From positions 32,001 to 96,000 of IMG/VR virus record IMGVR_UViG_3300028888_000053: DNA of 64,000 nt; one strand, 5' to 3'. Positions 8,096 to 29,673 of the stretch are shown here, piece after piece (the stretch's first letter is position 1; each line of letters starts with the position of its first letter). Origin of the DNA: a virus (lineage: Duplodnaviria > Caudoviricetes). The notes below the pieces were generated by a model that was not told where the DNA came from, made no database searches, and saw nothing but the letters and a program-made list of their open reading frames with translations. The translations under genes were made by a program, and so were the position numbers.

Positions 8096-11000
8096 TTATG
8101 AATAACTATTAGTATATAAAGTTAATATTCCAGAAATAACAGCTAAGTCCTCACCAGAATATCTAACCTTAATTCGTAAATATTTATCTTTTATTCTCAT
8201 CTCATGTCTTCCAGCATCCCATTTATCAAATGTAATGTCATTACCAGTATAATTTAACTACAATCTAGTATTCAATGGATCAATATTTAGTTCTTCTGGG
8301 AAGTCCTTAATATCTTCTGGTACTGGATTATTACCTAAAGCAAGTTTTAACTTCGGGTTATTATCATCTAAATGTGAGTTAAGATATTCATTCTTCTACA
8401 CATAATTAATAGAAGGAATCTATACATACCAAATATCTTCTTTATAATGCATATTACCTCTTAATCTACCATTCTTTGTAATATCAACACCCTAGACATG
8501 ATTGCAAATCTTAAATTCATTTAATAACTGATCATATATAATTTCACCGCCTGATAAATTCTGATATTCATAACCATTAGCGGTTAGAGCCTAATATGAA
8601 TCATATATCTTATTGTAATTCCCCTTTCTACTATAATAAAGTGGGAACATTGTTGATTTAAATACCTCTACAGGTACTACATCTTTAAAGTTCTTATTGT
8701 ATTTTATATTAGAACCCATACATATTTGATAGAATGCCTTTGTTAACTCCTATCTATAATACATATTAGGTTTATCACTAATTTGTTCTTTGAATGATCC
8801 TGGTGGCATTTTAATGTGATCAAGATCATAGCACTATCCAATTACTTCATAATGGAATGATTCTGGAGCTGCTTTATTAGAAATAATCCTCAAATCATTA
8901 AATATCTTGTGATTTATAGGATTATTATTTACTACAAACTCAAATTCAAATGGATGTTGTTCTCCATACCATTTAGTTGGTAATATTCTTTCCATATCTG
9001 GTACAAAGTCAGACTAACCATGTTTCCATAAATAAGTAAACCTTGTATCATCTACATCATCGATAATCTTCTTATCCGTTTCATGATTAAACGTGATAAA
9101 ATTATTACCAATATTACCAGAGAATGAAGGAATCCATGAATAGAAAGTCTACCATCCATTACCAGAATGAGCCGAGTTTAAATTATAACAAATATTCCAC
9201 ATTACATCTTCATTATAATCCCTGCCTACAACATCTACATTGTTGTAATCGTAAGCAGTGAACATTACATCATTTTTAAATGCATTGTAATGTGATTTAA
9301 TATTTGTTTTATTTAACTCTAATTCTTTATTCCACATTGATAATCCTTTATTCAAGAAGGACTATATTCTAAAGTCAGATATCAATTGGAATCCATGTGT
9401 AGTACCATTTGTATACCAAATTTTCTTTGCTACGGCATCTACTCCAAATACTCCATAAGGAGTTTGAATAATACTTTCAGGCCAAGTAGAACCATAAGTA
9501 TCAGAAATGATTACAGAATTTTCTGGTAACACATTTGGACTATTAATGAAGACTAATCCATTATTACCATTACCAGCCTATACTCTTTCTTTTACTGCTA
9601 ATGCTAAAATACCATGTTCGCAAACAACTAATAAGTCTCCACTTAATGTAAGTATTTTAACAATAGCTCCATATTGATCTGTATAATCTCTAAAATGAGT
9701 TGCAAGGAATGTTCTGTTGCCATTTTCAAAAGATCCATTAACCATTATATTAGAATAGGTAATTCTATTCTTATAATATGAATTATCAAAAATGGTATTA
9801 TTCTAATTCCAATACTATCTATCACTTCCAGATTTACTAAATGCAGAATTATAATTATCGGATTCTGGCATTTTGTATGAACCAGATGCGTCAACAGAGT
9901 GCAATGGATAGAACGATCTACTATTTCCACTCTAATGTTTCTCGTCAGTCCAAGATTCATCTGTACTTCTAATAGAAATATTCATTGATGAACGCACTGG
10001 GAAAGTAACCCAACTACCCATCTAAACAGCATTCAAGTCGCCAACATTGATTTTTAAAGCTGCTTTTGCGCCTGCTGGATCTGAAGAACCACTAGAATCA
10101 TTACCAGTAGAAGCTTCTATTCTTCGATATTCAACATCAAATATATCTTTACTAAATAATGATTCTACACTAGATGGGGATAATATCTCATCATTATAAG
10201 GCGCTGTTGCGTCGTTGAAATTTCTATTTACTCTATGGGTGAACCAGCCTATAAAGCAATCTCCTCTATATAATGAATCTGTTTCTACTAGATTAGTAGA
10301 CATTTCCATTCTATCACTAATAGCATAGTATTCAGATTTGTCATGATATCTTAATTCTCTATACTATTCAAACTAATCCGTAGAATAATTAGGAATATAT
10401 ATATTTACTATTCTATTAGCAAAATCTTTTACTGCGCGTTTCTTTGTATCACCTTCTGTATTATATACATATTCCTCAATTGGATAACAACCTAAATAAG
10501 GACCATATTTTCCACGTAATACATTAAATGGTACGTGCTAATTTAACATATAAATTCTATCATCCCGATTAATGGTAGTTTGATATGTGTTAGGCTTACT
10601 TATATCAATTTTGGCCGATTTTTCATCAGGAAAAACATATCCTAAGAATTTAGCTCCAGCAAATCTAAATGTAAAATCTTTATCACTACCACATTTCGTA
10701 GAGAAGTAAGCCGCTTCATTATGACGAAGATAAGATTTGCCAACTTCAACTGGATTGTTCATTCCTAAATTGATAGAACAAATAGTAATATCCTCTTCAA
10801 CTCCTAAAATCTTTGTAGTATATGTCTTGTTTTGAGTTTTTTCTAATTCTTGATTTTCGTATGTATATCTTCTAGAATTTTCACTTGTATTCAAGAAGGC
10901 TTCAGTTGTAGCGAATTTCGCAACTAAGTTACCACCAGTGAAAAAGTTGTTGTAATGTGCTTTGTATAAATCATATTCTGGACAAAATGCAGCATAAGAA

Positions 11001-13696
11001 TTAAATTCCATTGGATGAAAATACAAAGAATATTCATCGCTATCTTCATATGATTTTGGATATTCATATTTACCATCATACGTAGAAATGTCTTCTTTAT
11101 TATCATATACAGTTTCTTCAATAATTCCAGTATCATTTGGATCAACAACTATTTCTCGAATATAAGTAAAATGAAAATCTTTATAACTAGATGGAGTATA
11201 TTCTTTGTTAATACACTTATTAATAAACTATGTCAAAATATTTATTACATTTGACTGATTTTGTGCATTCTATCCATAACCTTCAGCATCAACTCGGTAT
11301 GTAATACCATTAAATTTAACATAACGGCACACTGGAGTATAATCTTTTAATGTTTTATTAACATTATCAAATCCTTTATCATACCAGTACTTTTGATATA
11401 ATCCTTCTCTTACATTTGTAACTCTAGTAGGTTCTTTACCTCCACTAGCAAAATCAATTGGGACATAGCCCTATGCTGTAAACTTCTAATTTTCAGTTGG
11501 AGAACATTCTTTTGCAACATAATTACTTCCAATACTATCTAGTTCAGCAGCTTCTTCACTACTTATTTTAGTGGCGAATAAAGCATAACACCAAAAATGA
11601 CGATCGTTATCGTAATTTAATGTATTTACATTATTAGCAAAAATACCAATAAAATCACTATCCTCCTTTTGCCATACTCGATAACCGGAGTACCAAAATT
11701 CTTTGTTATTACGTATAGACTGTCCATATTCTTTAACAAAGGCATTATAAGATACATTACCTAATACTTTTTTGTCTCTATAAATACGAGTGTGATCAGT
11801 TAAAGAGAATAATCTACGACTGTAAGCATTAAATAGCCTAGGTTTGTTTTCGTGCGAAATATTTTTAGGATAAAAAGCAGAATCAATGTCATTTGGTAAT
11901 TCATAAAAACTACCACCCATAAAAGATTCATACAAGTATCTTGCTTCACCATTAATGTCAGACTATAAATTAATGCTAGGAACATAAGCATCTTCACATA
12001 CATTAGTAGTATAAGCCTATGCTAAAAGAGTTGGAATTCTCTTCTGTCTTACAAAGAAGTAACCTTTATAGTTTTCTTGAATATAAGTATTCTACAAAGC
12101 TTCGATATTGAACTTAATACCAACAACAGTCATCTAATCCCAATCAGTTCCTTGATTAATTCTTGAAACACCAAATATATTGCAATGCTGATCTGATAAA
12201 GAAGATTCGTTATTATAATCAATTTGAGATTGAGAAACAAGTTTTATTGCTTTTAAAGTATCTTGGCTAGTTTTTTCTGTCAATTCATTAACACCTAATA
12301 CATCAAAGACACTCGTTAATGAATTATCTTGTCTTATATAAACAATACCAAATCTATAGAACTCTCCAATATGATAACCAGTAGATTCGTAACAGAACTT
12401 AGAATTATAATACGAATTCTATTCTTCACCTTCATCGTATTCATAGCTAGAACTTAAATTAACTCTTTTACTGGCATCCAACATTGGATACACCTAAAGA
12501 CTAATAGTTCTCAATTCATCATACTCATTATCATTTTTGTAATTCTCAGCTATATTACCCTAAAACAACATGTTCTATGTTAAACACTATGTTTTAACTG
12601 TATCTGCATTGAAATATCTTATATTAAGATCAGTAATTGCCATTGCTACTTCATCCTCAAAACCTGTAAAGATAATGTGAATAATACTATTTCCACCATC
12701 TTTTGTTACAGGGAATAATGTCTATACTTTATAAGCTAAAGTACTTGCATTCTAATTATTAGCAGCAGCAGTTCTAGTGTAACATAACTTTACGTAATGA
12801 TATGCACTATCTATATTTGTAATCGTTAAGTCTATTGATTTGTCTGATACTTGATTTTCAGATCCTCCATTTACACTAAAAGGATCTCCATCTGTTCCTA
12901 AAAATACAGGAATTACACCAGATTCACATATAATATCAGATTCATTGCCATCTTTGTCACACGCGATGACATATATTGTATATGTTCCTACTTTTAACTA
13001 ACCACCAGTTTGTAATCCATTAAACTGTATTTTAGGAATCTTATGAGAATCTCTATACAACGAAGTTTGCAAATTGAATAAAGTTTTATCATCTAATCGA
13101 TATCTATTAGTATGAACTGAATCATCACCAATTCTATCAATTATATAATATTCTCCATTTTCTCTTGCCTAGAAACCAGTGTTAATTAATTTAGGATTAT
13201 TTTTATTATCAGTAAAGATTAGATTTACCGAACCATCATAAGAATCCTCTGCTAACACTTCTACTGGATGATTTAAATCAAAATTAAAATATTCAGATCT
13301 TAAATCATACAATGAACCATTTTCAGTAATTCCAATCTTTAATGGGCTATATTTATAAATTAGTTTTCCTTTTTTGGCATCCCAATCAGGACTAGGGAAA
13401 CACCCAACTTCTCCTAATCCTCTTTCTTTACTATATGATATAATATACATGATATTACCGAATACTTTCAATCCGATTGGAACAAAAGTTTCGGTTAAGC
13501 ATGCATATGATGTTTCACCATTGTCTAAGTGATATGGAATTCTAACATTTCCCATATCATTCTATAGAATCTACTCATTACCGTTAAAGGTACTAATTGT
13601 AGCATTCAAAGCATTCGATAAGACATTTTTAGGTGTTGTGGCTATATTGCTGTCAAGAATTAATCCACCTTCAAACGTGTTTTGCGTAGTTTCCAT
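8096..13696 (-). CDS. Tail muzzle/stabilisation protein (~1,866 aa)
   Basis: Five ORF-track fragments (9149, 10022, 10538, 11486, 13169) share one frame. N-terminus METTQNTFEGGLILD...NALNAT...NDMGN and C-terminus RIKDKYLRIKVRYSG resemble crAss-like tail stabilisation proteins. Confidence 0.8.
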
Positions 13697-14741: not shown

Positions 14742-15443
14742 TTATTTCATTGCTGGTTTAAATGATCTGCCATAAGTCTTCCTCATAAACGAACTCTTAA
14801 CGTCTAAGATATCATTTGCGTCATTCTGATCAAGATGTTCAGGAACTCTGGCAGCATCACAAAATCTATTCCATTCATTCTTTAAAAACTAAGCCTATTG
14901 TATTATTGCAGTGTTATTGGTTGCTAAACCTTCTTTAAATTTCATAACATATGCAACATAACATGCAATGGCTTGTACTTCTCTATCATTTAAAAATGGT
15001 AGACCTTCATCATCTAACATTTCTCCTTCGTATAGAATTAATACTTTGGGAAATGGATGCTGTACATATATTTTATCTCCAATTCTTTCGTAATGAATAT
15101 ATTTTCCTCTTAAATATAAAGGATCTTTGAAGTGTTTTCTTGCTTCACTGTATTCTTCGTTAAAAGAACTAATGATATCACCATTCCAATGAATGCCATC
15201 AGCATAAGTCCAATCTTCTGGCGGAATGGTAACAGCTTCTATCTCATCACAATTACATGGAAGGTCTATGCTCAATGTTACTGGGTCAACTTTACCTACA
15301 TATCTGTAGAATCTTAAATGTTTGGTACCAATTAATGAATGAGCTATTAAGCCCATTTCCTCAAAATCAGAACTATCATTAAAGTCTGTACCGTACAATA
15401 AGTTGGCCTAGAACATTGCTGTATTAAAATTATTTAATGCCAT
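14742..15443 (-). CDS. Tail ring/tubular protein (233 aa)
   Basis: Extends fragment 14895..15398 through TAGs. Contains IDLPCN, DDEGLPFL and AIACYVAY motifs. Size and position are typical of crAss ring proteins. Confidence 0.7.
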
Positions 15444-15453
15444 ATATAATCAA

Positions 15454-16143
15454 TTAACCTGGAGCATGTTGCTATGTATTAGGAGTAATAGGAGCAGCCA
15501 TTCTTCTATACAAATCAACATAATACTTAACCAGTCTATTAGCTATTTCATTATCTAACCATGTATATTGCTAATTTGACAACTCTTGACAGCAATTAAA
15601 CTGTTCAAGTTGTCTTGGATCTTTAAATACAGCAACTACAGATATTGTCTTCATTAAAGGAGCATTAAATATAAAGCAATCATACATTCCATTCTCATTT
15701 GGAGTAATATCAATGTATACATACGGTTTGTCTTTATTTCTCCTTCTATATTTGTGGTAGTATTGCCATTTCTATGATGATAGATAAAACACAAAAGGAT
15801 TCTACCTATCAGGACTCCCTATATATGCAATAGATCTACTTCCAAAATCAGTAATGATTTGAGGTATTTCAAAATGCATTGTAGGTGTTCCAATATTAGA
15901 ATTTGGATTACATATAGAACATCTTTCCAAATCCTTACAATCAACTTCTATACAATTGATCGCTAAGAGTAAATCATTAATTGGCAATATTCCTTTTAGC
16001 TAACTCTCTTTAACTATCTGTAATCGTGTAGAAACTATCGAGTCTTCTATCAATTCCATCGGAAGACTCATATTATTGTGTAGTCCACGTAATCCAGATA
16101 CAACATCCATCTAGATACGTGAAGCTAATTTATCGTACACCAT
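15454..16143 (-). CDS. Tail ring protein (229 aa)
   Basis: MVYDKLASRI*MDVVSGLRG...KYRRR..KPYVYI...VAVFKDPR, with TAG read-through. Includes fragment 15802..15987. Confidence 0.7.
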
Positions 16144-16159
16144 ATTATTATAAATAATT

Positions 16160-16198
16160 AAAGGCGAAGGCTACAATTGCCTCCGCCTTCTTTTTTTT
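16160..16198 (-). terminator. Hairpin/terminator after auxiliary capsid gene (possibly bidirectional)
   Basis: Minus strand AAGGCGGAGGC-AATTGTA-GCCTTCGCCTT, an 11-bp stem with one G-U pair. T-rich tails on both strands. Confidence 0.7.
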
Positions 16199-16242
16199 AA
16201 TTTACATTATGAAAGTTTTTAATATCAAAAAAGCTCTTAATT

Positions 16243-17214
16243 TTATTCGTTGCTCTTAGGGCCCTAAATACCATAAGATGTCATGTCAACAAACTCAACA
16301 CCAATTTCAGTGAGAGCGCTTTCAAAATCCTCTGCGAGGCCGTGCTGTACCCAGAATACATGAGTTGTCTCAGAAGTAATCTGTTCGCCAACACCACCAA
16401 GACCAGCTACCTGACCACGATCCACAATATAGTGGAGGATGTATTCGTCGTAAATAGCACCAGCAGCGGGCATTTCGTCTGCCATAGGTCTCTTCCAGCG
16501 AAGATTTGCAGCGGTAGGAAGACGGAAGTCTTTCTCGAGATGAGCGAAAGTACCAAAGCCTTCAGCTCCACCGATAACAGCGCCTTCAGTTTCTGTCATA
16601 TCAGCAACGAGAACCCAGCGTTCTGCGACACCGGCGGCAGCAGGAACAAACTTCTCAACAGCGAGTTTGGTAATTCTCATATACTCATTAGCAGCAACGA
16701 GATAAGCAACATCACTCATATCCTTAGCGGCAGGAGTCTTAATAGCAGAAACACGCTCTGTACTATCCACTTCCTTAGCGGGTTTCAAAACGGGCTTGTC
16801 AAGGGTAATATTCATGTACTTGTTAAGATTCTTAGCAAGTTCTACCTTTGCTGTCTTGCCTGTTGGAACAGTAAACTCTACATAGAAAGGTTTGCCCTTA
16901 AATACGAAATCATTGGAGAACAGAGGATCTGCATTACCAATCGAACGAATGTAGAGAGCCAAACGATAGATCTGATCTTCACCAGTACTATCTTTTTCAC
17001 CTGCAGTAATCTAAGGAAGTTTGCTCAAATCAATTGTATCAAGCCAAGCGTCATGACCCTCGGTCTTGTAAGCACAAATCTTATGAGTTTCATCCATTTT
17101 GTAAAGACCCTGATGCTTTACATAAACAACCTCACCCTTCTTCTCGATCAAGGGGAGACCGGTGCTATAGTCCTTAAGACTATTTACTAAAGTAGTTGTA
17201 GTAAACTAAAACAT
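16243..17214 (-). CDS. Auxiliary capsid (decoration) protein (323 aa)
   Basis: MF*FTTTTLVNS... extends fragment 16264..16962 at both ends through TAG. GC-richer codon usage like the MCP gene. Size and position match the crAss auxiliary capsid protein. Confidence 0.7.
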
Positions 17215-17280
17215 AATAATTAAATCAATTTAAATTACTCTTCGTAATGTTAATAAATATTATCTATAAACTCATTAATC

Positions 17281-17685
17281 TTAGCTAGCAGCCTGCGATG
17301 CTTGTTGTGCAGGATTAGCTATGGATTGCGACAAAGGAACATGAGTTTGAACTCTTTGATCCGTGGCGTTCTCCATAATAATATGAACTAATTCATTAAT
17401 AATCTCTTGACAAATATAATCAGGATATTCCATAATTTGCGACGTATCCTCAGTTTTGTCAATTTGTTCTTGGGTTAATCTTATGTATTGAGGTGTCTTA
17501 AGATAATCAACATGAACACCGGCTAATTCATAGACCGAATCATCATTGCCATATCTTATTTCCAACCTAACTTTACTTGTATTTCCATAACGATGCTGAG
17601 CATCAGGCTATACTAGATCAATAGTTTGGCCACCAATTTTTGTAGTCCTAGGAAATTCACTAGGAAATTTAACTATTTCTGGCAT
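17281..17685 (-). CDS. C-terminal half of a split tail-ring protein (134 aa)
   Basis: MPEIVKFPSEFPRT...RYGNTSKVRLEIRYG...DYLKTPQYIRLT...MEYPDYICQEIINELVHIIMEN. The DYLKxP strand plus terminal helix is a ring-protein C-terminus with no N-terminal helices. It has its own ATG in AT-rich context. Confidence 0.7.
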
Positions 17686-17710
17686 AATTTTATATTTTTA
17701 ATTCATGTTG

Positions 17711-17743
17711 GTAATTATAATATATCTAATTATAAAAATCAAT
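17711..17743 (-). promoter_or_regulatory. Promoter-like motif ATTGATT-N17-TATAATT upstream of ring C-half
   Basis: Same spacing as the motifs at 4198, 29905 and 50204. Lies about 28 nt upstream of ATG 17685. Confidence 0.5.
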
Positions 17744-17796
17744 TATTGCGAATGTTTATTGAAAAATAGATGTTTTATAACTGAATATTAAGCAGA

Positions 17797-20700
17797 TTAA
17801 TTGTTTTCATCTGTAGAATTAAGAGCATACTTGTCTACAATAACATTCCAATTAAATGCATTAGCACCACTAATCACATCTTTGGCATCCGTCCCATAAT
17901 AATAATCCGCAGTAATTAACCCTTCTCCAGGATTGTTATATGCATAATCAGATATCCAATAAGTTCCATTTTTAAATGTCTAATACTGACTTGTACTTGC
18001 ATCCTAGCCGGCAGCTGGCGCAATTGATGTATACATTTGTTCTGGGAATTTATTACATGTAAAAATTATACTTGTACATTTAGTGGTACAATTTAAATAA
18101 TCAACACCTTTGTCTAAATATTTAGAACAAGGCAAAAAAGTCCCATAATCTTCAGAAGATTCTATCTATGTAAATGCATCTAATGAACCATCATTTTGAT
18201 TTGATTCCCAAAGAGCCCTCCATAATTCCATAACAGGATAACTTGTGGCTATAATGCATCCTCTATAATACACAAGTTCTCTATGTAAATTTACAGTCAA
18301 AATCAATTTTTCACCCACAAAAGAGTCTGCGTAACGCATATATGCAATTGCGTCTTTACAATTTGTTAATGCTGGATTCGGATATGAAGTATATTCATAT
18401 GTGATTCCCCTTGTATCAAAAGAATTAATATATGACACATCATTATCATTTCTTACTTCAAAATAATAAGCAGGAAAATCAATATATACCTCAATAAAGG
18501 CATTATTTTCTGAATCCAGATTACTAAATCCATATCTACTCAACCAATCAGCATATCCATCATCATTATTAACTGTATCATCATAAGCTTCTTTAACCAT
18601 TGCCTATACATCTTCTGTCCATATAGTTTGTGTATGCTATAATTTTATATTAGTGCCATATTGTAATGGATTAAAATAATATTTAATAGTTAACTAATGG
18701 GTTTCATCTTCAGAAACTATACAATGTATATATTTCTTGTCAATATCAGCTAATTCAACTGTCTATTCACCAGCTATTGCAGTTCCCGAGAATCTTGCAC
18801 TAGTAGATTTACAAGTTAAATTACCATCTTTATCAACATAGAAATTAGGATTATCCTTATCTCCAAGCCATAATGGATATTTAGGAGTTGTTTCACTCTT
18901 TTCTACAACAGTAAACTATCCATAAGAAGTGCTGCCATCTTTTAATGTTACAGATCTTGTTGCCAGACTATCAATCTTAGCATTAGCAGCCAATAAGTTC
19001 TAGTAATAAGCAGACTATTCGGATTGAATCTACATCCAATGTTCGGAGTCTTCATACCAATTATTTGGCACAGTTGAAGTATATTTAATGGAAGATTTAC
19101 ACTAGTAAACGGCATATGGCTAATCACCTTCATCAATTATAATAAAATCAATAAAGTCATCAGTACCATCTTTATACTAGAAATCAACCATAGGATGCTT
19201 AAGACTTTTATAGAATGTACGAATTGTAGCACCACGTTGTCCAGAATCTCCTTGTTTACCTTCCTTTACAATAGAAATTGTTTCTTGATCCACTATGACA
19301 TCTTCATTATTTACCTTCTTTGTCAATTGGACTACAATATATTTAGGTAAATTAGCATCTGCATCATAGTGAATTGTATTATTTTCAATTGTAAACTAGG
19401 TTCCAGTATCATCCTTTGCAGTAATACCATAACCTTCTACGCCAATTACAGAATTAATTCCATTAGGAGAAATTTCTTGTGCACCAATCGTTATTGTCTA
19501 TGCAACATCTGCTTTATCATTATTTGTTGCGGTAATAACATCTGGAGTCAAAAGCAAACGATAAGAACTACCATCTTCAGATACATCAACAACTTTTAAT
19601 TTTTGGTATTTATACAATACTGTTGTACCAACTGTAATTGTATAAGTGATAGTATATGTTTCACCTGCAATTAAGTCTGCATTTTCGTTGATTTTAGATA
19701 ATATAACCTAACAATCTCCATTTTTTGTATTAGAGGAATCAGCTTTAATATTAGATCCGTCAGGAAGAGCAATATCAACACTATAATCAGAATCTTGTGC
19801 TTTATAGGTTAATTTTTCAGTGCCTTTAAATACCTAAATAAGTCCTGTTGATACACCTTTTAAAAGGTTATTAGTAATATTGTCATCAACAATGATAGTA
19901 TCATTAGTTAATGAAGCTGTAATACCGCTACTTCCTTGTTCTCCAGCTATACTAAATGTAATCTATTCACGATCAAATAAGACTAAATTATATCCACTAT
20001 TGTTAACTGCATAAGCTTCAACATAGATGCCTTTACAATTTGTTTGATTATATCTATTTAATGCGTTAGCTGGAAAGACAACTGTTTCTCCGTCACTGCT
20101 GGTGTAATATTGAACTTCGTCATTATCTGGATTATTATCTTTCATTACACGTAACATTACGTGTACTCTAGATGCTACAGTATTTATAGTCTCATATTTA
20201 ATTTCTGCTAAATCACCAGAAATTTTCTATAGCTTTACTTCAATATTTTCATCAAAACCAGCTTCTAATATTTGGCCATTATATCTTCTATAAAGTACAT
20301 CATTTGATAACATTAATTTATACGAACTACCATCCTCGGAAATATCAAAGACTTTTACTTTTTGTACAGTTTCAGCAATAATATTTCCTTCATATTCAGC
20401 ACGAATATGAATCGTCCGATATGGATCATCTGCCGATAAATAAGTATTTTCTTTTAACTATAAATAGAAAGTGTTATTACTTATTACTACATCAAACAAA
20501 TCATACTAACCACCTTCTTCGCTAATAGTAACAATATATGGTTTAGTTGTTTCAGATGAATTTTCTGAAGTGATAAAACACTAATTGGTTACATCTTCAA
20601 CGCCCTTCAATAATTTGATATTAGCTTTTGATACTTGTTCTATAACACCATTAGTAGCATTATCATCTAATACCACAACGTCATTATCAATTGTTAAAAG

Positions 20701-23700
20701 ATAAGGAGATGTACCGTCGGTCGTGTGTTGATACATTAAAACAGGATCACCAAAATTATTCCAACGATGATTTAAAGAATTCCATTTTCTTTGAGCCCAA
20801 TAAACATATTTTGATGTTTCTGTTGGCTATAATAAATCGTCAGACCAATGCTTATATTTTCTAGTATCATTAACAAGCTTATCGTAATCTTCAGAAAGCA
20901 CGGGTTCTATGATAGGTAAGAAATCATCATTTGTTTTAGCAACACTGTTTGTTTGCTATACAATTTGATATTTATTGCCAACCTTTACATAACCTCTGCA
21001 ATCATAAGCAATAGTTAAATTTGGATTGATTGTATCACTTAATAAATAAACATATTCAACGCCATTTCCATCCTAACCATCTTTAACAAACTGAATTGTT
21101 TCAGAGTCAATAATTAAATCATTTTTTACAGCCTGAACTTCTAATGCACTAAAATCAGTTAGTATTGTATATGGTATTCCAGCATTTCCAGTTGCAGTGC
21201 CAGTTAAATTAATTTTATACTCATAACCCTATTGCTAAGTAGTATCCATATTAGCAATACTAATATTCATTGGCTAACTTTCACTGTCATTTTGAGAATT
21301 TACATACCCTATAAATTGTATTTGAATACTATTATCATTCAAATTCTATCTAGTTACTTCTCCATTCTTAATCATATTAACAGAAATAGAAGCACTTGAT
21401 GAATTTGCAATACCATTAGAATTAATAGATATAGAATTAGGACTAACTACTAATTTGTAAACTTCACCATTACCAATATCCTTGATAAGAACCTTTTGAG
21501 ACTTACTAAGAACAACAGTATTATTATTTTCATCATCAAATGTAATAGATACATTTACAGTACCAGATGTTTCTACTACAGAAGCATTTGGTTTAAATGT
21601 GAGATGATATGATAAATTACTCTGATCAGTAACTGGCTCAAAGATGTTATTAAGATTACTAGAAACTGTTACATTTATTAACGGATTATTATCAGATACA
21701 TTTACTTGCTGTCCTTCATAATAGATACTAGCCTATGTCTGAGAAACGACTTCCAAATCACCAGAAACAGTATCATCATCAATTATAATATAATCATTAT
21801 CAAGTGTTAAAGCATAATTAGAACTAACACTCTCTCCTGTCTCTCCTTGGTAAGAGAAGGAAATTGGTTCAGTATCCCATTCAAATCCATTAACAAACAG
21901 TTTACAATTTATAATTGTTGAACTATTAACATAATCAAGAAATGCAGAATTACTAAAATCAATTGCAATGGTACCTAATTGAACTTGTTTCCTAGTTATT
22001 TTATAAGTATAATCAGCTCCGACAAATGATAATAAAATATAATTTTTATTAACAGTATCATCTGCATCTAATACTAAATTACTAACCTAATCACCGATAC
22101 TTTCAATTGCATTAAATGTAATTACAGTATTTTTATTAGTTTGTAATGTTCCAAGAACATCTTTATATAATACGTTTGGTGTTACATTTAATACGTAATT
22201 TCTACCATCAGAGTAATTCTATATACGAATATTCTATTGTAATGTAGCCACAACACCAGAACCAGCATCAACATAAGCTGCATATGTAATAGTACCATAA
22301 TATTGATGATCTTTAAATGGATATTGAACAGTTGAATCAAACTTTTCTGGATTTGGAATTAAATAAAATCCGACAGGTTTATTATTCTAATTATCTGCCA
22401 ACATTGCAAATAATCCTGGTTCTACCAATTGATCATTTTCGTCATATATAGACTAGGAAACAATATCTATTAAATATGTTCCCATCTCTTGTACAACATC
22501 TTCGTATTTTAATTCTGGTACAAAATAAGAAGCATTTTTTAAGCTTGAAGCAGTAGTATCATCATCAATTACAAGAGAATGTTGAAAATTTAATACATAT
22601 GGAGAGTATCCATCTTTACCATCTTCTGGCATGATGTATACATCACAATCCTCCTATGCTAGATATTCTTCGTTCTTTTTTAATGTAAATACAGCGTAAT
22701 CCAAATTGGCAAAATCATTACCAGTAATATCAGGCAGTTGAATTATTCCGTTTTCTCCGATTAAAGGTTGTTCACCTGTTCCATGATAAGTTACAGAACT
22801 AAGTACAGTTCTGTTATTTGTATATAAAGTAAGCTAAACATTGAAGTCACTAAAATTAGTTACTTGCTATGTAGTAGCTCCAATATAATGATTAATACTT
22901 AACTAAGCACTATTTCCATATACGTAGGTGCGATCTTTCTTTAAACGAATCTAAGATGGGAATACTTTAATATCATAGAATTCATTAGAATCTAATACTA
23001 TAATCTTCTAACTCTACTACCCTGTATATGTAACAGATGAATCATTTGGATCTACATATTCAAAATCTACTTCTACTCCAGTATCGCCAAAGACTTTAGT
23101 ACAATAGAATGACTTTGGATAATAATTGCTATCTGTATACCCAGAGTCTAATTCCGTATTTCCGTCTACTAATTTAAATTCAGCTGTAGTCTATTCACCA
23201 GGAGTGCGACCTATTTCTTTTACTTCTGTAATTCTATACTAATTACCACTTAACGGCTAACCATGATATGTAATAGTTAATGTGGCATAAGATGTTTTCT
23301 TTAAAGTAGCTTTTGCTTCATCCGATAAATTATTACCTAATAAAGTCTGATTTACTAATACATTTTCATTAATTAAATCACAATCAAAATCAGAGAAAGA
23401 TTCAGTACGTAATTTAGACTAATAGAATACAGCTATCGCCTAGTGGTCTTCAATCTCTTTATCAGGAGATAAGATGTAGGCTTCAATGTAATCGTTTACA
23501 TTATCACCACCACTCAAGAATTGCTACATTACATCCTAAGAGAATGTCCAACTACCATTTGTAGTAGTAATAGGTTCAGAATTCTCGTCTTCACTCCAAA
23601 TTTCTCTTACTGTATTACCATTGGTAAATGATAATTTAAAATAATGTGCGTTAGTAGTATCTACTGCATATTTCTATATCGTACCATCCCAATATAATTT

Positions 23701-24840
23701 ATTGGCAGTACATGTAATAGCAGGAGCTAAATTAGTACTAGGAATATTAATAACACCAGGTGCTACTGTTATTTTATAAGAATATTCTTTACTAGTAAAA
23801 CGCATCTGTTGCATAATGGTCATATTCTAAGCACCAACAGATACTAAGAATCCAACAGCAAAGAATGTCTCAGAATTAACTTTACTTAACACCGAATCAT
23901 CATCGACTGATTTAGTATAAGCCAAAACCTCATCAGTTGATAATTTATCATGATCTGTATCAGCCCATTCTAACCAATATACTTTGGCAGGAACTTCTAT
24001 ACCATTAATAGTAGTAATATCTTGCCCTGTACGAACTCTGAATCCATTTCCATTACCATCTGTAATTGGAGCAAAAGAATCCTGTAAAGCTATCGAACTA
24101 ATATTATTACTAGCAACTGGTTCTCCATTATAAAATACCTATAAAATAGTATAAGAAGCTTCTTTTAATGCTTTATTAGAAACTTTTCCATCAATACTTT
24201 TAGGTATGGATACGTTATAATTTGATAAACTACAACGATAAATATCATTACTTACACTTGTACTTGACGATACTCCACCACCACTCAATAAGAATGGTTT
24301 GGACCACTAAGCATTATTAGTAGTACCATCAAGGCCATAAAGTGTATAATTTCCATTCTATTCAACTTTAAAAAGACCATAACAAGCCCAGATTACCTGT
24401 CTATCATAATCAACTTCAACATTGAAAGATGCAGTCCATTCTGTGTTGTTTATAGCCCTTATTAATTCTTGGAAACTATTTGCTCTAGTAATTGTAGGAA
24501 TAGCAATCTTACTCTAATCAGTCTCACTATTTACTAAATAAGCGAAGATGGCTCGAATATCGTTAGACTAAGCTGCACCTCCGCTTTTAGCAACCAACTA
24601 ATTATCGATTATGTGATATTCCTGAATAGAACTTCTAGTCCCATTCACCCATCTAGCAACAGTAGCACCATCAGGAAGAGAAGAAACACCTAATGTTTCT
24701 TGTAGTGTAGAAATAATCTAATCTTCACTAACATCCCAAGGTCCATAATAAATGTCATTAGATGGCTGTGGGATGCCGTCTCTTAGCGATTGCATTTGAA
24801 ACGGCAATCCACGATAATATATTTGGTCTGTATTTGCCAT
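17797..24840 (-). CDS. Giant repeat-containing fibre/adhesin protein (~2,347 aa)
   Basis: ATG 24840 (MANTDQIYYRGLPF...YYGPWD) to TAA 17797. Fragments 18166 and 19963 are in frame. Beta-rich tandem repeats (L.ND.(I/V)..DD; DG..Y.L...P). Confidence 0.75.
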
Positions 24841-24862
24841 AATAAATAATTATTAATTATTA

Positions 24863-26080
24863 TTATACCTTTGTGACAACAACCTCATACGAGTTGTTCT
24901 AATATGCACCAACTGTAGAATCTCCATAATATACTACAGTATATTCACCAACAGTAATAGATTTCCATCCAGAATGATTTGTCTAGCCCCATAACTCAGT
25001 GTTAAAGGTCTTTTCAGTAATAGTAGTTACATTAAAATCATTTGTCTTAAATGCAAACCATACCACCTTGGTCTATGCTCCATCAAGATTAAATCTATAT
25101 TTAGAAGATGTTACAAATAATCTATTATTAGTTGGATCAGTAATATCTATTTCCATTGCTGGAATTTCATTCTTACCAGTATATATATAACCACCAGGAG
25201 TATATTGCGTAGCACCCTTCTAAATGGCAGTAAATGTCAATGTGTTATTGGATTCATTCTAGGTAAAATCAATATATCCATATCTAAGATTAGGAGTTGT
25301 ATTATCATTAGCAATGACATTTGTGCCATCAAAGTCCAACCAATCAGCATTCCTTACTTTATAAGTATAACCCTATATAGCAGGACTTTCATTGTTGATC
25401 TTCTTCGTACTCGTAACAGTAACAGGTAATTGACCACCAGCAGCTTCAAATTCATTTGTAAACTTATCAAGTAAGAATACATAAGTAGTATTTGGAGTCA
25501 CATCGGTACCTTTAATAATCTAACCATCATCATCCAATTCTATTGGATTAGTAGGACGATCAACAGAAGTATTGACATTATGAATATAATAGTAAGGTCT
25601 ACGAGGTAATGGACGAGCATATAAATTATTCAATATACCAGCCCATAAATCTGCAGTAAGCCTCTATGCTGCAACACTCCAGTAATCACCAGCATTATGA
25701 CAACCATCACGTTTCTTCAATTTGTAAATACATACGCAATTTAAAAGATGGAAATAATCATCTGGTAAATCAACTTCATAAGTGGCACCATATACACTAT
25801 CTATCATTTTAACGTCATCACCAACAACTCCACTAGCACCGCCTTCGAAGTCAGCGTATTCATATGCCTTGTGTGGCTTTAATAATGCGCCGGCTTTTAA
25901 TACGCGCATATTGTCTGTAGTCTGCTAATTAACATCGTAAATATTATACTATTTATTTACAAATTGCTAAATAGCCTTATTGAAAAAATAATTAAAATCG
26001 TCTAATAATACAGAGGGAGCATTCACCTTATTTAATTCAGTTAATACAGCCTCCATAATTTTACGCGCTGTGTATGCCAT
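24863..26080 (-). CDS. N-terminal half of tail-ring protein fused to BACON-like and adaptor domains (405 aa)
   Basis: MAYTARKIMEAVLTELNK...FNYFFNKAI*QFVNK...LPDDYFHLLNC...RPYYY is a ring-protein N-part. It is followed at ~25485-25215 by a BACON signature (AAGG...ADWL...NTT..RYGYIDFT*NES...TAI*). Confidence 0.75.
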
Positions 26081-26127
26081 AATTAAACGTATATAAAATA
26101 TAAATAACTATTATCTAAAAACAATTA

Positions 26128-26169
26128 AAGCCTTGCATTACTCAAACAACGGTGAGTAACACAAGGCTT
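26128..26169 (-). terminator. Long hairpin/terminator
   Basis: Minus strand AAGCCTTGTGTTACTCA-loop-TGAGTAATGCAAGGCTT followed by a T-rich tail. Confidence 0.7.
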
Positions 26170-26177
26170 GAGTATCA

Positions 26178-27032
26178 TTACTTGGACGGTTTCTTGTCCG
26201 CAAACAATTCGGGATAAACATCCTTACGAATCAATTCTAATACATTCTTGTTCTAAGGATGCTGCATCCAATTAATTACAGCATCATCCGTAGCACCAAG
26301 AATAATGTTATCACCGTAAACGTATAGCTTGTTCTTGTAAATGATAATCTTCTTATCTTTGGCGTCAGCAAACAACAATCTTAATGAGATATCTTCACCT
26401 CTATACAAATTAATAATCTTATCAGGACTCTTCTCAGCAACCTAATCCAAGAAATCAATTACATCAGTATCAGGCATGTTCTCCATTCTTCTGCCTAACA
26501 ATCTAGCTTTTGTTAAGCGACCTTCATACCCGCGCTCGTCTTCAAAAATGTAATTCAACGCTTCACGATACTTCGACTTCTTACTTACTCTCTGCTGAGA
26601 TTCCAAACCAGGACGGTCTACATACAATTCGGCAGTTCCGTAACGAGGAGTGGTGTTTCTATATCCCATTGTGCCATCAATAAGATAATTACCCTGTTTG
26701 TCCTTAGACCAACGCTCAGGTGCAATCATTCGATTATGCTTAATAGCTTCCCAGATAGCCTTATCTCTTGGGTTATCTAAGTTGAAAGTCTGTCCGTCAA
26801 CAATGGTGAACATAGAATTCTCAGGCAAAAATACATTACCACTATTCCGATCTTTATCAGAAAGAATCATGTCTCCGTGAGAATCAACTCTACGTACACA
26901 ATCAGGAAATTCACCAGTTTCAGGATCCTTACAAGGCTAAATAAAATACTTCATTCCAACCTTACCATAAACACTTCTTAGCACAACAACATTACTCTAT
27001 ATATCACTATTCTTAGTACTTTTAGTAGCCAT
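26178..27032 (-). CDS. Conserved post-MCP structural protein (284 aa; portal-vertex auxiliary-like by synteny)
   Basis: MATKSTKNSDI*SNVVVLRSVYGK... with TAG read-through, includes fragment 26442..26870. Immediately follows the MCP. Confidence 0.6.
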
Positions 27033-27065
27033 AAATTTTTTTGTTAATTATAATATATGAAAATA

Positions 27066-27097
27066 TTCTGGGAGAGGGTTTTAATGCTCTCCCAGAA
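27066..27097 (-). terminator. Hairpin/terminator after MCP
   Basis: Perfect 11-bp inverted repeat TTCTGGGAGAG / CTCTCCCAGAA. Confidence 0.75.
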
Positions 27098-27141
27098 AAA
27101 TCTATAGGTTATTTTATTATCTAAACAATCTCATTCATTTA

Positions 27142-28563
27142 TCAGATCTCACGAATGATGAACGAACGATAAGGATTAAATACTGCGATACCAGCATAAC
27201 CCCAAGCGACGAGCTTGCTACCAGCAACAGGAGTAGAAACCTGACCACTGGAGAGGCCGTCAAGACCACCAACACCAACAATCTGGTTAGTCAAATACTC
27301 ACCACCCTTAAGAGTGAAGCAAGCAATAGGAGGCTGTGCAGATGTCTTGTCAGCAGTTAAGTCGAGACAGAGGCAATAGCCCTTCTCCGAACCGTACTCA
27401 CGGCTAAGAGCTCTCTCAACCTTGAAGGTAACAGTATTACCAGCAAATTCATAAGAATTATAGGTAGCACCAACCTTTACATAATCATTTGCGGCCTGAG
27501 ACCACAAATAAGAACCATCGGTCTTAGCCTGTACGAGGTAGTCACCAAGTACGAGCTGGAGGTTCTGCCAGAAGCGTTCGTTGCAGATGAAGGTGTAGTG
27601 GTTACCAGTAGGAGTGGCAGCCTTCTCACCCAACATAGCGAGAGCGGTCTGGAATACTTCCATAGATAGACGGTTGTATGCATACTTGGATGCAAATCTC
27701 TCAACCTGAGGAATAAGACCCTCGGTAATGTAAACAGGTCTATTAGTATCGGGATCAACGATAGAAGCCTTACCATTAGCGTCTACATTACCCTTATTAA
27801 ACAACAGACCAGTGTTACGAGCGTACATGAAGTTATCAAGCAAGATCTTCTCTTGTTTGTCCATACGATAAATAACTTCGCTCATGTCGCCATTACCCTT
27901 ACCAGATGCAATCTTGATGAATACATCCTCGTGAGCAGCAAAGAGAGCAGAACGAGAAATATCGTTACGGAAGGTCTGGATAACGTTACGCATCTTGCTA
28001 ACGTTGCTCTGATACTTAACATAACCCTCTTCATGGAGCTCAGGCATAGCGTTGCTTAAGAACATGGTGGTATCACCAATGTTGCAACCAGTAACGTCAA
28101 GTACAGAACTGTAATCGTTGTCGATCAAACGAACCTGTACTTCCCAGTAGTTGTCACGTTTACGAATAGGCTTCGAAACAACCATGCACTACTGACCAGT
28201 TGCGTCAATTCTAAAGATATCATATTTCTCATAATATCTTTCTTTGAAAGCCATGGTAATCTCAGTACCATTAGCGCCATCCTCAGTAGGAACGTCAGCG
28301 AATTCAATACGCTTGATATTATTAGTGGAAATCTCCCACTCGAAATACATCGAATTAATGCTCTAGAATTTGTTGGATGCCTTAGCATCATTGTAGAAGA
28401 TATTTCTCAACGATTCAGTTAAATAAGAAGCGGTCATATCTTCATACATACGAGATACGATACCAAAACGAGTAGGATTAGTACCAATCCACTTACTAAA
28501 GTCTTCATATGTTGCAGTCTCGGACATTGCCGGATGCAAATTTACCATTGTTGCTACTTGCAT
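27142..28563 (-). CDS. Major capsid protein, crAss-like (473 aa; two in-frame TAG)
   Basis: Fragments 28363..28563 and 27142..28185 join through TAGs at 28363 and 28189. Motifs MYFEWEI, PELHEEG, EGLIPQVER, GIAVFNPYRS. Strong codon bias. Follows an acidic scaffold-like gene. Confidence 0.88.
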
Positions 28564-28590
28564 AAAATAATATTTTTTTAGTTGTTAATC

Positions 28591-29673
28591 TTACCAATCG
28601 ATATCATCGATTGACATACGTTTCTTTACCTCTTTATTCTCAGGCCTCTTTACAACAACTTTAGGATCTGCGGGCTATTTATTACTAGAAGCTTTTTTAA
28701 CTCCTTCTTCATAGCCAGCTCGGTGAGCTTTAGTGATCTCTGCCTTATAATAGTCAGAAACACTATTAATAACATCCTCACCCTTTAACGCAAACCACGC
28801 CATCTGCACAAGAGTCTCAGGATCATTCAATGCTTTCTGTAAATAACTAATACCAGCATTGTCAGTTCCAGTTAAAAATGTATAAATTTCATTTTTGTCA
28901 TCATCATCCATATCAACACTAAGCTCTCCAAGAGAGTCAAAATTGTTGATTGCATTTACAACACCATATGCATAACGATCGAAGTTGTCTTGTGCAAGTT
29001 GTTGCTAGTAAGCAGCATCTTTCTGATTCTTTTCATCTTCAAGTCTATGATATTCGTCTCTAAGTCCAGCAATTTCCTTGGCAAATAATGCTTCATTAGA
29101 TTTGGCTCTATCTAAAGCCTCTTGTAATTCCTCCTCAGTAATCTTATCTTGTCCAATACGTGCTTGTAGATCTAACACATAAAGCTCTTCATCCGTAAGG
29201 TCATCTATAGAATACGTTGGTTCAGGAGCTCCCTACTACTACATATATTCTGCTACACCCTGCTGTTTAATAGTTGCAACAAATTCCTCGGGAGTCATAT
29301 TACTGAGTCTCAATCTATTAATAAGATCTATTTCAGAATCATCTAATTGAGTGTTATCATCTACAGGCTATTCATTATTTTGAAGTATGTTGAGTTGTTC
29401 ACGTGAAGTCAAATCATTCCAGTTCTTTTCCTACACCTGATCATTATCATCTAAGAACTTAATCTTCGTAGGATCGTCAATACCTTTCTGCTTCAATAAA
29501 GAAGCAATGACGTCGATCTGTTCATCTGGCTCTTCAGGTTGATTATCTTCAACTACTAGTTCTTCTTCTCCTGTCTAAGTTGGTTCCTCCACAGTCTATT
29601 GCGCAGGATCCGTTTCACTTACGCTTACATCAACTACATCGTCGATGTCAATGTCATCAATACTTATTGCCAT
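28591..29673 (-). CDS. Acidic scaffold-like protein upstream of MCP (360 aa)
   Basis: MAISIDDIDID... very Asp/Glu-rich and helical, with TAG read-through. Includes fragment 28675..28911. Confidence 0.65.

Follow-up and report, generated by a model that had tools for sequence, protein, structure and literature searches.

The window analysed here, a stretch of 64,000 nucleotides, belongs to a gut crAss-like phage in which TAG is recoded. The three minus-strand open reading frames (ORFs) of the locus can be read only with TAG as glutamine; with translation table 11 the region is fragmented. Once TAG is so read, all three ORFs are present where the sequence-only reading had placed them: an ORF of 405 aa (26080..24863), a giant fibre-like ORF of 2,347 aa (24840..17797) with 60 in-frame TAG codons read as glutamine, and an ORF of 134 aa (17685..17281). 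The motifs that it had quoted from the first and the last of these were found as well. The giant ORF starts 22 nt past the stop codon of the 405-aa gene, and between it and the 134-aa ORF, with which it shares a reading frame, lies an AT-rich spacer of 111 nt (17686..17796, minus strand) that contains several in-frame stops. A promoter-like motif had been suggested ahead of the 134-aa ORF, but we counted 6 sigma-70-like sites where 5.4 were expected, which is chance level.

Genes that could be anchored with Pfam models (Crass_capsid, CrAss_Ring_2, CrAss_Ring_1 and crAss_MUZ) lie on either side of these ORFs, all of them on the minus strand. Upstream is the major capsid protein (MCP; 473 aa, 27142..28563; Crass_capsid, E 2e-12). 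Downstream are ring 2 (240 aa, 16176..15454; CrAss_Ring_2, E 0.0025) and ring 1 (233 aa, 15443..14742; CrAss_Ring_1, E 7e-4), both with sub-threshold matches, and the muzzle protein (1,866 aa, 8096..13696; crAss_MUZ, E 1.9e-19, and crAss_MUZ_C, E 2.4e-5). The orthologues of ring 1 and ring 2 at three other loci (L010, L016 and L019) have stronger precomputed Pfam matches. Across relatives the order is kept as MCP, a 284-aa protein, the ring gene, a 323-aa protein, ring 2, ring 1 and, further along, the muzzle protein.

The 405-aa protein (P0001) aligns with the N-terminal part of single-chain relatives up to residue ~181-195 (nt ~25496), in agreement with the switch that had been placed after ~25500, and the 134-aa protein (P0002) takes up the homology to these relatives again from residue ~9. 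We refer to residues 1-195 of the 405-aa protein (25496..26080, minus strand), which contribute the helices of the N-terminus and the opening strands of a beta domain, as the N-half, and to the separate 134-aa ORF, with its four beta strands and long C-terminal helix, as the C-half. The 212-kb genome, which CheckV rates as 100% complete, has one copy of each half. Compared with the intact homologue P0366, residues 4-181 of P0001 are 52% identical to positions 2-161 and residues 9-132 of P0002 are 55% identical to positions 189-312; identity of the 134-aa protein to the C-terminal part of single-chain relatives is 60-64%. Both halves are found in one ORF in MT835470 (318 aa), in MT835492 (331 aa) and in an IMG/VR contig (413 aa), and the tblastn matches of the two halves adjoin in MT835470 and MT835492, so that the single polypeptide earlier expected in relatives was confirmed. 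Intact relatives are encoded by one ORF of 313-649 aa spanning both halves, as are most of the homologues that we found (1,822; 821 representatives at 50% identity), and both halves are present in 92 of the 120 best homologues. In the window, both halves keep the residues that are invariant in the single-chain family. These results support the conclusion that the 405-aa and 134-aa ORFs hold the halves of one conserved gene, which relatives translate as one polypeptide. In the intact P0366 model the break lies within a loop of 27 residues that has low pLDDT and varies in length among homologues, as had been expected of a variable loop joining the halves, and in single-chain members inserts of up to ~330 aa occur at the same loop. 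The loop inserts of the single-chain relatives are varied, and no fibre gene lies close by them.

To describe the fold we used an AlphaFold model of P0366 (pLDDT 83.6, pTM 0.79), which is 52-55% identical to the window halves and stands in for the two chains of the window. The model matches the ring chains of phicrAss001 (7qoj_D/E/F) with E 2e-8 to 2e-7 and a probability of 1.00; against 7qoj_E the Z score is 15.0 and the rmsd 3.8, with 214 of 238 residues aligned over model range 1-300. The next-best fold matches are podovirus adaptors, namely those of SU10, Pa223, A4, KHP30 and GP4 (Z 8-9.6). The two-part fold of R3/R4/R5, made up of alpha-helices with a beta-sandwich, is present in the model, and the split gene sits at the gp34/gp35 position of phicrAss001, after the MCP gene and before the genes for the auxiliary capsid protein, R2, R1 and the muzzle. 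Fold and synteny thus bear out the earlier call of a tail-ring protein, and support its assignment, as judged from the model of the intact homologue, to the crassvirus R3/R4/R5 type. The corresponding Pfam family, PF25710 (CrAss_Ring_3_4; cut-off 27 bits), has no match at E<=10 in the whole 212-kb genome and none at E<=1 among 62 homologues, and we therefore regard the gene as a structural and positional homologue, not as a member of the Pfam family as modelled now. An hhalign comparison with phicrAss001 gp35 yielded only a weak N-terminal alignment (E 0.095), and the Pfam models THA, THB and AuxCP likewise have no match in this genome.

Matches to the beta domain cover residues 59-243 of the P0366 model and helical matches cover residues 20-288, and therefore both domains straddle the break. 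In the model, the beta domain draws strands from each half and the bundle a helix from each, and neither half alone contains a complete domain by the model and the alignments. Because each structural domain needs both halves in the intact model, assembly in trans is the natural reading of the locus.

The split layout is present at six further loci (L004, L009, L010, L011, L016 and L017), with N-half identities of 56-60% at L009-L011 and L017, and the order of N-half with extension, fibre gene or genes, and C-half is found in 7 of the 7 contigs that extend far enough to show it. In all split loci the C-half is preceded by a spacer of 58-114 nt, and stand-alone homologues of the C-half fall into about 24-25 clusters with 32 invariant columns. 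The layout is conserved in a diverged clade, with both halves under strong constraint, and where the sequence-only reading had envisaged an insertion, the arrangement is not a recent one but is old, is common to the clade and comes with several types of adaptor.

Beyond the N-half, the 405-aa protein carries an extension. Its residues ~212-292 (25205..25447, minus strand) form a BACON-like Ig domain, matched by PDB chain 2mqc with E 1.4e-4. The BACON domain proposed earlier finds partial support in this match and in a precomputed match to PF13004 in the relative P0005 (60% identical), but on the window protein itself the Pfam BACON model (PF13004, residues 244-287) scores 13.6 bits (E 0.067), under its cut-off of 25 bits. 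The remainder, residues 293-405 and the stop codon (24863..25204, minus strand), is a beta-rich C-terminal "adaptor" module, the putative fibre dock, whose equivalent is retained in relatives P0005-P0009. Shorter split forms, designated type B, are without the BACON-like domain, and the matching tail of the type-B protein P0022 is a confident beta-sandwich (pLDDT 80-90). No homology could be demonstrated between the type A extension (BACON plus module) and the type B extension (BLASTP E 24; hhalign probability 1.8%).

No sequence match to the 2,347-aa protein was found in Pfam, PHROG or PDB, and it is its size, its position, its modular repeats, with a recurring module-start motif, and its variable tip that suggest a fibre. 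It is 94% identical in L005, whereas in L004 it is 82% identical over residues 1-2125 and divergent beyond. Its N-terminal domain of ~100 aa (24541..24840, minus strand) contains an invariant Y-G-P-W; in an alignment of 8 fibres from 6 loci (alignment A5) the invariant positions are Y32, G33, P34, W35, P56, G58, V61, E74 and Y75. This YGPW domain is common to all inserted fibres, and one or more genes that begin with it come after the N-half at every split locus. We found it only at the starts of genes that follow split ring genes: the surroundings of five intact-ring genes, to about 9-10 kb, lack it, as do three whole records of intact-ring relatives. Across split loci the N-half ORF and the fibre ORF either overlap by 4-8 nt or are 2-22 nt apart. 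The co-occurrence of fibre and split tracks phylogeny, and therefore does not count as a set of independent events.

We propose that the ring gene underwent fission at a loop of its beta domain, that its product is reassembled in trans, and that the extension docks the fibre; we assign this statement as a whole a probability of roughly 0.72. A single R3/R4/R5-type tail-barrel ring gene would have been broken at a loop of its beta ("fibre-dock"-like) domain that is radially variable. Chain 1 (405 aa) consists of the ring N-half, the BACON-like domain and the beta-rich C-terminal module, and chain 2 (134 aa) of the ring C-half, with its own start after the 111-nt spacer. The two chains would co-fold non-covalently into one ring subunit, and twelve such subunits may form the distal ring or rings of the tail barrel. 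At the broken end of chain 1, the extension is predicted to point outward and to hold the YGPW domain of the fibre, such that fission would offer a topological solution for hanging an oligomeric fibre dock, together with a co-expressed fibre gene, at an internal loop. That the ring gene is split and its product assembled in trans we consider very probable; gene order, tight coupling of the ORFs and co-occurrence lead us to lean, with modest confidence, toward docking of the giant fibre by the extension.

A ring that is split and reassembled in trans might instead bear the extension as a surface decoration, an Ig/BACON-type binder of glycan or mucus, with the fibre attached elsewhere on the tail and its gene located here since insertion is tolerated at the broken loop. 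The diverse loop inserts of single-chain relatives that have no fibre gene nearby would fit such a role, as would the optional nature of the BACON-like domain. Furthermore, no relationship is detectable between the type A and type B extensions, in contrast to the fibre N-domains, and therefore the conserved partner of the fibre could be something else. We nevertheless judge decoration to be unlikely, as the extension gene and the fibre gene are strictly adjacent, with overlaps of 4-8 nt, in diverged lineages, the fibre N-domain is never found without a split ring gene in our sample, and no other hub candidate was identified.

Trans assembly itself would fall if the halves had diverged, with the N-half fusion serving as a free fibre-associated protein, the C-half being unrelated or decaying, and the barrel built of R1 and R2 only. 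The number of ring genes does differ among some crassviruses (PMC10172136). However, the retention of invariant single-chain-family residues in both halves, the lack of a complete domain in either half of the P0366 model, and a C-half as conserved as in intact genes (55-64% identity) make this explanation highly improbable.

Splicing that removes ~7.9 kb, a split intein that trans-splices the protein, or ribosomal bypass could also rejoin the halves into one mRNA or one polypeptide. In genomes of this kind group I introns and homing endonucleases occur frequently, the NUMOD1 ORFs in the MCP genes of relatives being an example, and the fibre and C-half ORFs of the window lie in one reading frame. 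The sequence-only reading had recognised no intein, intron or homing-endonuclease signature and had thought long-range splicing the less likely course, and our searches agree on both counts: no intein/Hint or homing-endonuclease domain was matched by Pfam at E<=0.1, an Rfam scan of 16000-29000 at E<=1 for group I/II introns gave one chance-level match to an unrelated family, and no repeats flanking the junctions were found. The C-half leader is short, with 1-12 variable residues ahead of F-P-R/E and no conserved nucleophile (+1 Cys/Ser/Thr). We rejected a split intein in view of this start and of the lack of Hint fragments, and a group I or group II intron at the junctions for want of a covariance-model match. 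Moreover, the extension is a conserved, foldable domain terminated by a real stop, the spacer has several in-frame stops of its own, and the "intervening" DNA is a conserved structural gene of 1,762-2,459 aa, all of which leaves rejoining with very little credence. Finally, a chimeric contig or assembly artefact, although the sequence is metagenome-derived, is practically ruled out by the same junctions in independent assemblies from other samples (the identical 405-aa protein is in two more Logan run assemblies, DRR595518 and SRR28623936) and by the layout of the six further loci, of which four are shown to be diverged by their N-half identity.

The fission that we favour had been presented as a new way to add appendages, but the same design has already been solved in the split nozzle of the Pseudomonas podophage A1002 (PMC13730344). 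Its nozzle-rope gp39 and nozzle-base gp42 were resolved by cryo-EM, and the fibre genes gp40/gp41 are numbered between them (PMC13730344). In both cases a tail protein that is canonically one chain is made as two, each ORF here being homologous to a different part of the single-chain protein; the A1002 parts supply each other's missing strands. One part bears a fibre-dock extension in A1002, as is predicted here, and the fibre genes lie between the parts. The A1002 nozzle is hexameric, belongs to an unrelated phage group, carries small dimeric fibres and was solved experimentally, whereas the crAss split, with its predicted dodecameric ring/adaptor and one giant fibre, is read from sequence and models only.

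Among crassviruses, R3 (gp35) and R4/R5 (gp34) of phicrAss001 (PDB 7QOJ) have the same fold of N-terminal helices, beta-sandwich and C-terminal helix, and their genes likewise lie between MCP and the auxiliary-capsid/R2/R1/muzzle genes. The ring protein described here differs in being encoded by two genes ~7.2 kb apart, and its single-chain relatives are ~80-400 aa longer than R3-R5 through the variable loop. Unlike in the docking predicted here, the fibres of phicrAss001 attach to distinct tail-hub proteins (THA/THB, on R1/R2) rather than to R3-R5. Many crassviruses have one R3/4/5-type homologue per genome (PMC10172136), and the count is the same here. Podovirus adaptors share the helix bundle with a peripheral beta domain, and in T7 gp11 and the SU10 adaptor fibres are docked by the beta domain with its radial loops (PMC6702177, PMC9509320), which hold the N-termini of trimeric fibres; the equivalence of those loops to the one broken here is putative. 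The T7 and SU10 adaptors are single chains with short loops, whereas in the present ring protein one or two extra domains are attached to the N-side end of a broken loop.

It is conceivable that gene order amounts to an assembly programme, in which the C-half would complete the ring fold only after the dock had captured the fibre, and that fission at the fibre-dock loop is a general, convergent means for short-tailed phages to attach large oligomeric fibres to tail rings of 12-fold or 6-fold symmetry, as in the crass ring and the A1002 nozzle. We offer this as speculation that will probably not hold; if true, construction of the distal tail barrel would have fibre loading as a checkpoint. The split itself looks like a way to graft a new host-recognition fibre onto the tail.

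Under the standard bacterial code (table 11) the region held nothing but short ORFs, and under table 4, in which TGA is read as Trp, the frames stayed closed. Reading TAG as Gln opened three minus-strand ORFs at the positions proposed by the sequence-only reading: a 405-aa gene (26080..24863) with 11 TAG codons, a 2,347-aa gene (24840..17797) with 60, and a 134-aa gene (17685..17281) with 1. As judged from their sequences, the neighboring genes identify the region as a Crassvirales structural module. The module runs from the major capsid protein (Pfam Crass_capsid, E 2e-12) through a 284-aa gene, the split gene and a 323-aa gene to ring 2 and ring 1, with two small genes separating ring 1 from the 1,866-aa muzzle protein (Pfam crAss_MUZ, E 1.9e-19). 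The 323-aa gene (16243-17214), which follows the 134-aa ORF and has no Pfam match, is in a position equal to that of the phicrAss001 auxiliary capsid gene gp36 (333 aa). At 212,277 bp the whole genome, of which the window is 32001-96000, is approximately twice the size of a classical crAss-like phage, and its split-ring relatives come from contigs 127-226 kb long.

The 405-aa and 134-aa ORFs had been read as two halves of what is one polypeptide in related phages, and contiguous homologues bear this out. In a TBLASTN search of GenBank phages, the matches to the 405-aa protein (residues 4-223) and to the 134-aa protein (residues 11-118) adjoined in two gut phage records with matching gene neighborhoods: a single 318-aa ORF spans both halves in MT835470 without recoding, and a 331-aa ORF does so in MT835492 with TAG read as Gln. 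An IMG/VR contig encodes a 413-aa single-chain form. The 405-aa protein had 1,822 homologues in a large protein database; among the best 120 of these, both halves were present in 92, and the N-half occurred without the C-half in the remaining 28, which include all of the closest relatives. Searched with a profile, 1.8 billion representatives yielded 821 family members, many of them single chains with an insert between the halves and a total length of up to 649 aa. Similarity to the single-chain forms ends at approximately residues 181-195 of the 405-aa protein, beyond which lies a C-terminal extension, and resumes at approximately residue 9 of the 134-aa protein. The adaptor modules of the extensions had no BLAST similarity to the loop inserts of the large single-chain members, and no evolutionary intermediate was found; Pfam gave no significant match for ten large-loop members.

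None of the three proteins had a match in PHROGs, and Pfam returned only sub-threshold noise for them. PDB sequence searches with the single proteins and with a 62-sequence profile gave no ring match, and neither PF25710, Pfam's HMM for the R3/R4 ring of phicrAss001, nor the Pfam THA, THB and AuxCP HMMs matched anywhere in the whole genome. Against phicrAss001 gp33, gp34 and gp35, hhalign produced weak alignments of the family profile, the one to gp35 being weak and N-terminal. For structure we took advantage of an intact single-chain homologue (P0366, 313 aa), which AlphaFold modeled from a diverse 62-sequence alignment with a pLDDT of 83.6 and a pTM of 0.79. Foldseek matched this model to the phicrAss001 tail-barrel ring chains 7qoj_D/E/F (E 2e-8 to 2e-7, probability 1.00), and VIA-align against 7qoj_E gave a Z of 15.0 and an rmsd of 3.8 A, with 214 of 238 residues aligned across model residues 1-300. 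The runners-up, adaptor proteins of short-tailed phages, fell well below (Z 8-9.6), and R1/R2-type chains (7qog) scored far lower. When a split-type protein of a relative (P0022) was the first row, the N-half was modeled at a pLDDT of 30-60 and the extension as a confident beta-sandwich, and fold searches gave no clear answer. The split gene occupies the gp34/gp35 position of phicrAss001, and in many crassviruses only one R3/R4/R5 homologue is present (PMC10172136). From the fold match of the intact relative and this position, we call the split gene a predicted R3/R4/R5-type ring protein, outside the Pfam family as now modeled; the proposed tail-ring identity is thus supported without a PF25710 match. 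Because even this fold-confirmed ring was missed, the blanks from PF25710, THA, THB and AuxCP are uninformative, and because the Pfam AuxCP, Ring_3_4, THA and THB models all miss this genome, the split-ring clade is poorly served by present annotation resources.

On the P0366 model, the N-half corresponds to residues 2-161 and the C-half to residues 189-312. The 27 residues between them form the sole long low-confidence stretch of the model, and it is in these residues that length differences within the family fall. The N-half contributes helices 3-16, 24-48 and 50-56 and strands within residues 60-146, and the C-half contributes strands 194-243 and the long helix 269-287. Among structural neighbors, those that match only the beta domain cover residues 59-243, and those that match the helical part cover 20-288; because these spans straddle the break, both domains are predicted to be built from both halves, with no complete domain in either ORF. 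It is chiefly for this reason that we think the two chains must co-fold.

Misassembly, which the sequence-only reading had raised as a possible source of the arrangement, does not explain a layout that further assemblies and relatives repeat. The identical 405-aa protein is present in two further Logan run assemblies, and one of those contigs, of 79 kb, has the order 405 aa, 2,300 aa, 134 aa, 331 aa. All contigs with sufficient reach (the window and, from relatives, L004, L009, L010, L011, L016 and L017) share one layout, in which the N-half with its extension is followed by one or two very large genes, a C-half of 130-136 aa, a gene of three hundred-odd codons, R2 and R1. The 134-aa query found 129 short homologues, among them approximately 24 clusters 122-136 aa long, and some stand-alone C-half clusters are on the contigs of 127-226 kb. 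The alignment of stand-alone C-halves has 32 invariant columns, and each sequence begins with Met and 1-12 variable residues, followed by a conserved F-P-R/E. The N-half, extension and C-half are each single-copy in the 212-kb genome (CheckV 100%), and therefore no intact paralogue serves as a back-up. We consider that the split is neither an artefact, nor a remnant, nor a one-off. In a FastTree phylogeny of N-halves, 31 of the 35 split forms fall inside one 41-row group, although support is weak and the polytomy also contains a nested intact clade. Another six "split" rows, placed outside the split-only clades, have short sequences and may be intact genes cut off at a contig end. A single origin of the split, or a few, would fit this distribution.

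The major capsid gene is itself apparently interrupted in relatives (L009:6601-9003, L011:6600-9002 and L016:1-1397), which have a 326-aa Crass_capsid ORF, a 244-305-aa ORF and a 149-aa ORF. Faint NUMOD1 homing-endonuclease matches in the 244-305-aa ORF suggest an intron or endonuclease insertion. In L010, four NUMOD1-type ORFs lie immediately upstream, and in L009 an extra 442-aa gene without a family match (L009:18341-19669) separates the giant fibre gene from the C-half ORF.

That the two ring halves are covalently rejoined is very improbable. No intein, intron or endonuclease signature had been recognized by eye, and the databases agree: Rfam found no intron over 16000-29000, and Pfam found no intein and no endonuclease. 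Additionally, the leader of the C-half is short, variable and unfit for a split intein, the junctions lack flanking repeats, the spacer contains several in-frame stops, and the extension is itself conserved as a protein domain, its counterpart in P0022 being a predicted beta-sandwich with a pLDDT of 80-90. A promoter-like motif claimed before the C-half was not upheld, as a promoter and terminator scan of this spacer remained at chance level. A 26-nt minus-strand motif, GTTT[A/T]TAGATAATA..., precedes the starts of the 405-aa and 323-aa genes by 17-57 nt (26097-26122 and 17246-17271), and a looser copy precedes the 284-aa gene (27115-27128). Its window-wide count was not above chance and no copy precedes the C-half; a late promoter or regulatory function is possible.

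The 2,347-aa putative fibre protein, whose gene lies between the ring halves, had no family match and no PDB match. A module-start motif recurs along its chain, and its last approximately 220 residues diverge between two strains that are otherwise 82% identical (window 17797-18460 versus L004:17525-18143): the alignment covers residues 1-2125 and ends there, the proteins being 2,347 and 2,300 aa, respectively. The L004 ring N-half gene is identical to that of the window despite this difference. These sequences suggest that the distal, presumably receptor-binding, fibre tip has been exchanged, and both the recurring motif and the variable end are typical of modular fibres whose tips can be exchanged. 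Every gene after a split ring carries a shared N-terminal domain of approximately 100 aa, in which Y-G-P-W, P, G, V, E and Y are invariant. L006, from a relative, has two such YGPW-domain genes in tandem (L006:9612-14497), one of 1,016 aa with a Cthe_2159 beta-helix match and the other of more than 604 aa, and a single type of dock may thus be shared by two or more fibres or tailspikes. No YGPW domain was found within approximately 9-10 kb of five intact ring genes, in three whole intact-ring records, or in the phicrAss001 fibres gp22-26. In five lineages the N-half and fibre genes share an overlap of 4-8 nt, in the others 2-22 nt separate them, and the spacer before the C-half is always 58-114 nt.

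Crassvirales are the most abundant human-gut phages, and to our knowledge fibre attachment in most of them is known from one structure only, that of phicrAss001 with separate tail-hub proteins. The split-ring clade appears to use a different solution, and we found no description of a split ring gene in Crassvirales in the literature. From sequence and analogy, we infer that the extension docks the fibre: the distal ring protein would be cut at a radial loop, the cut end would bear a docking module, and the fibre gene would be nested in the gap between the ring halves. In favor of this docking role, the extension-bearing and fibre ORFs adjoin and are tightly coupled, split ring and fibre co-occur, and there is an analogy with the T7 and SU10 adaptors, in which fibre N-termini are held by a peripheral beta domain and radial "fibre-dock loops" (PMC6702177, PMC9509320). 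Against it, split ring and fibre co-occur along phylogenetic lines, the narrow Pfam tail-hub models leave room for a conventional hub, and the extension comes in two types, A (a BACON-like domain and a module of approximately 113 aa, as in the window) and B (a module of approximately 120-145 aa alone, as in P0022), which have no detectable homology (BLASTP E 24, hhalign probability 1.8%) though the fibre N-domains are homologous.

The recently solved nozzle of the Pseudomonas podophage A1002 consists of gp39 (nozzle-rope) and gp42 (nozzle-base), which supply each other's missing strands; the fibre dock is an extension of gp39, and the genes between the two, gp40/gp41, encode the fibres (PMC13730344). 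The suggestion that the split ring represents a new way of adding appendages must therefore yield to a solved precedent of the design. We regard the split as well supported as a genomic fact and as plausible as a mechanism. For annotators, the 134-aa and 405-aa ORFs are two parts of one ring protein, both invisible unless TAG is read as Gln. If the mechanism is true, a split ring followed by a YGPW-domain gene would be a sequence signature of a host-range determinant in uncultured crass-like genomes, and tail-ring subunits would tolerate fission inside both domains. The split ring would also be an independent case beside the A1002 split nozzle, suggesting a convergent principle of tail evolution.
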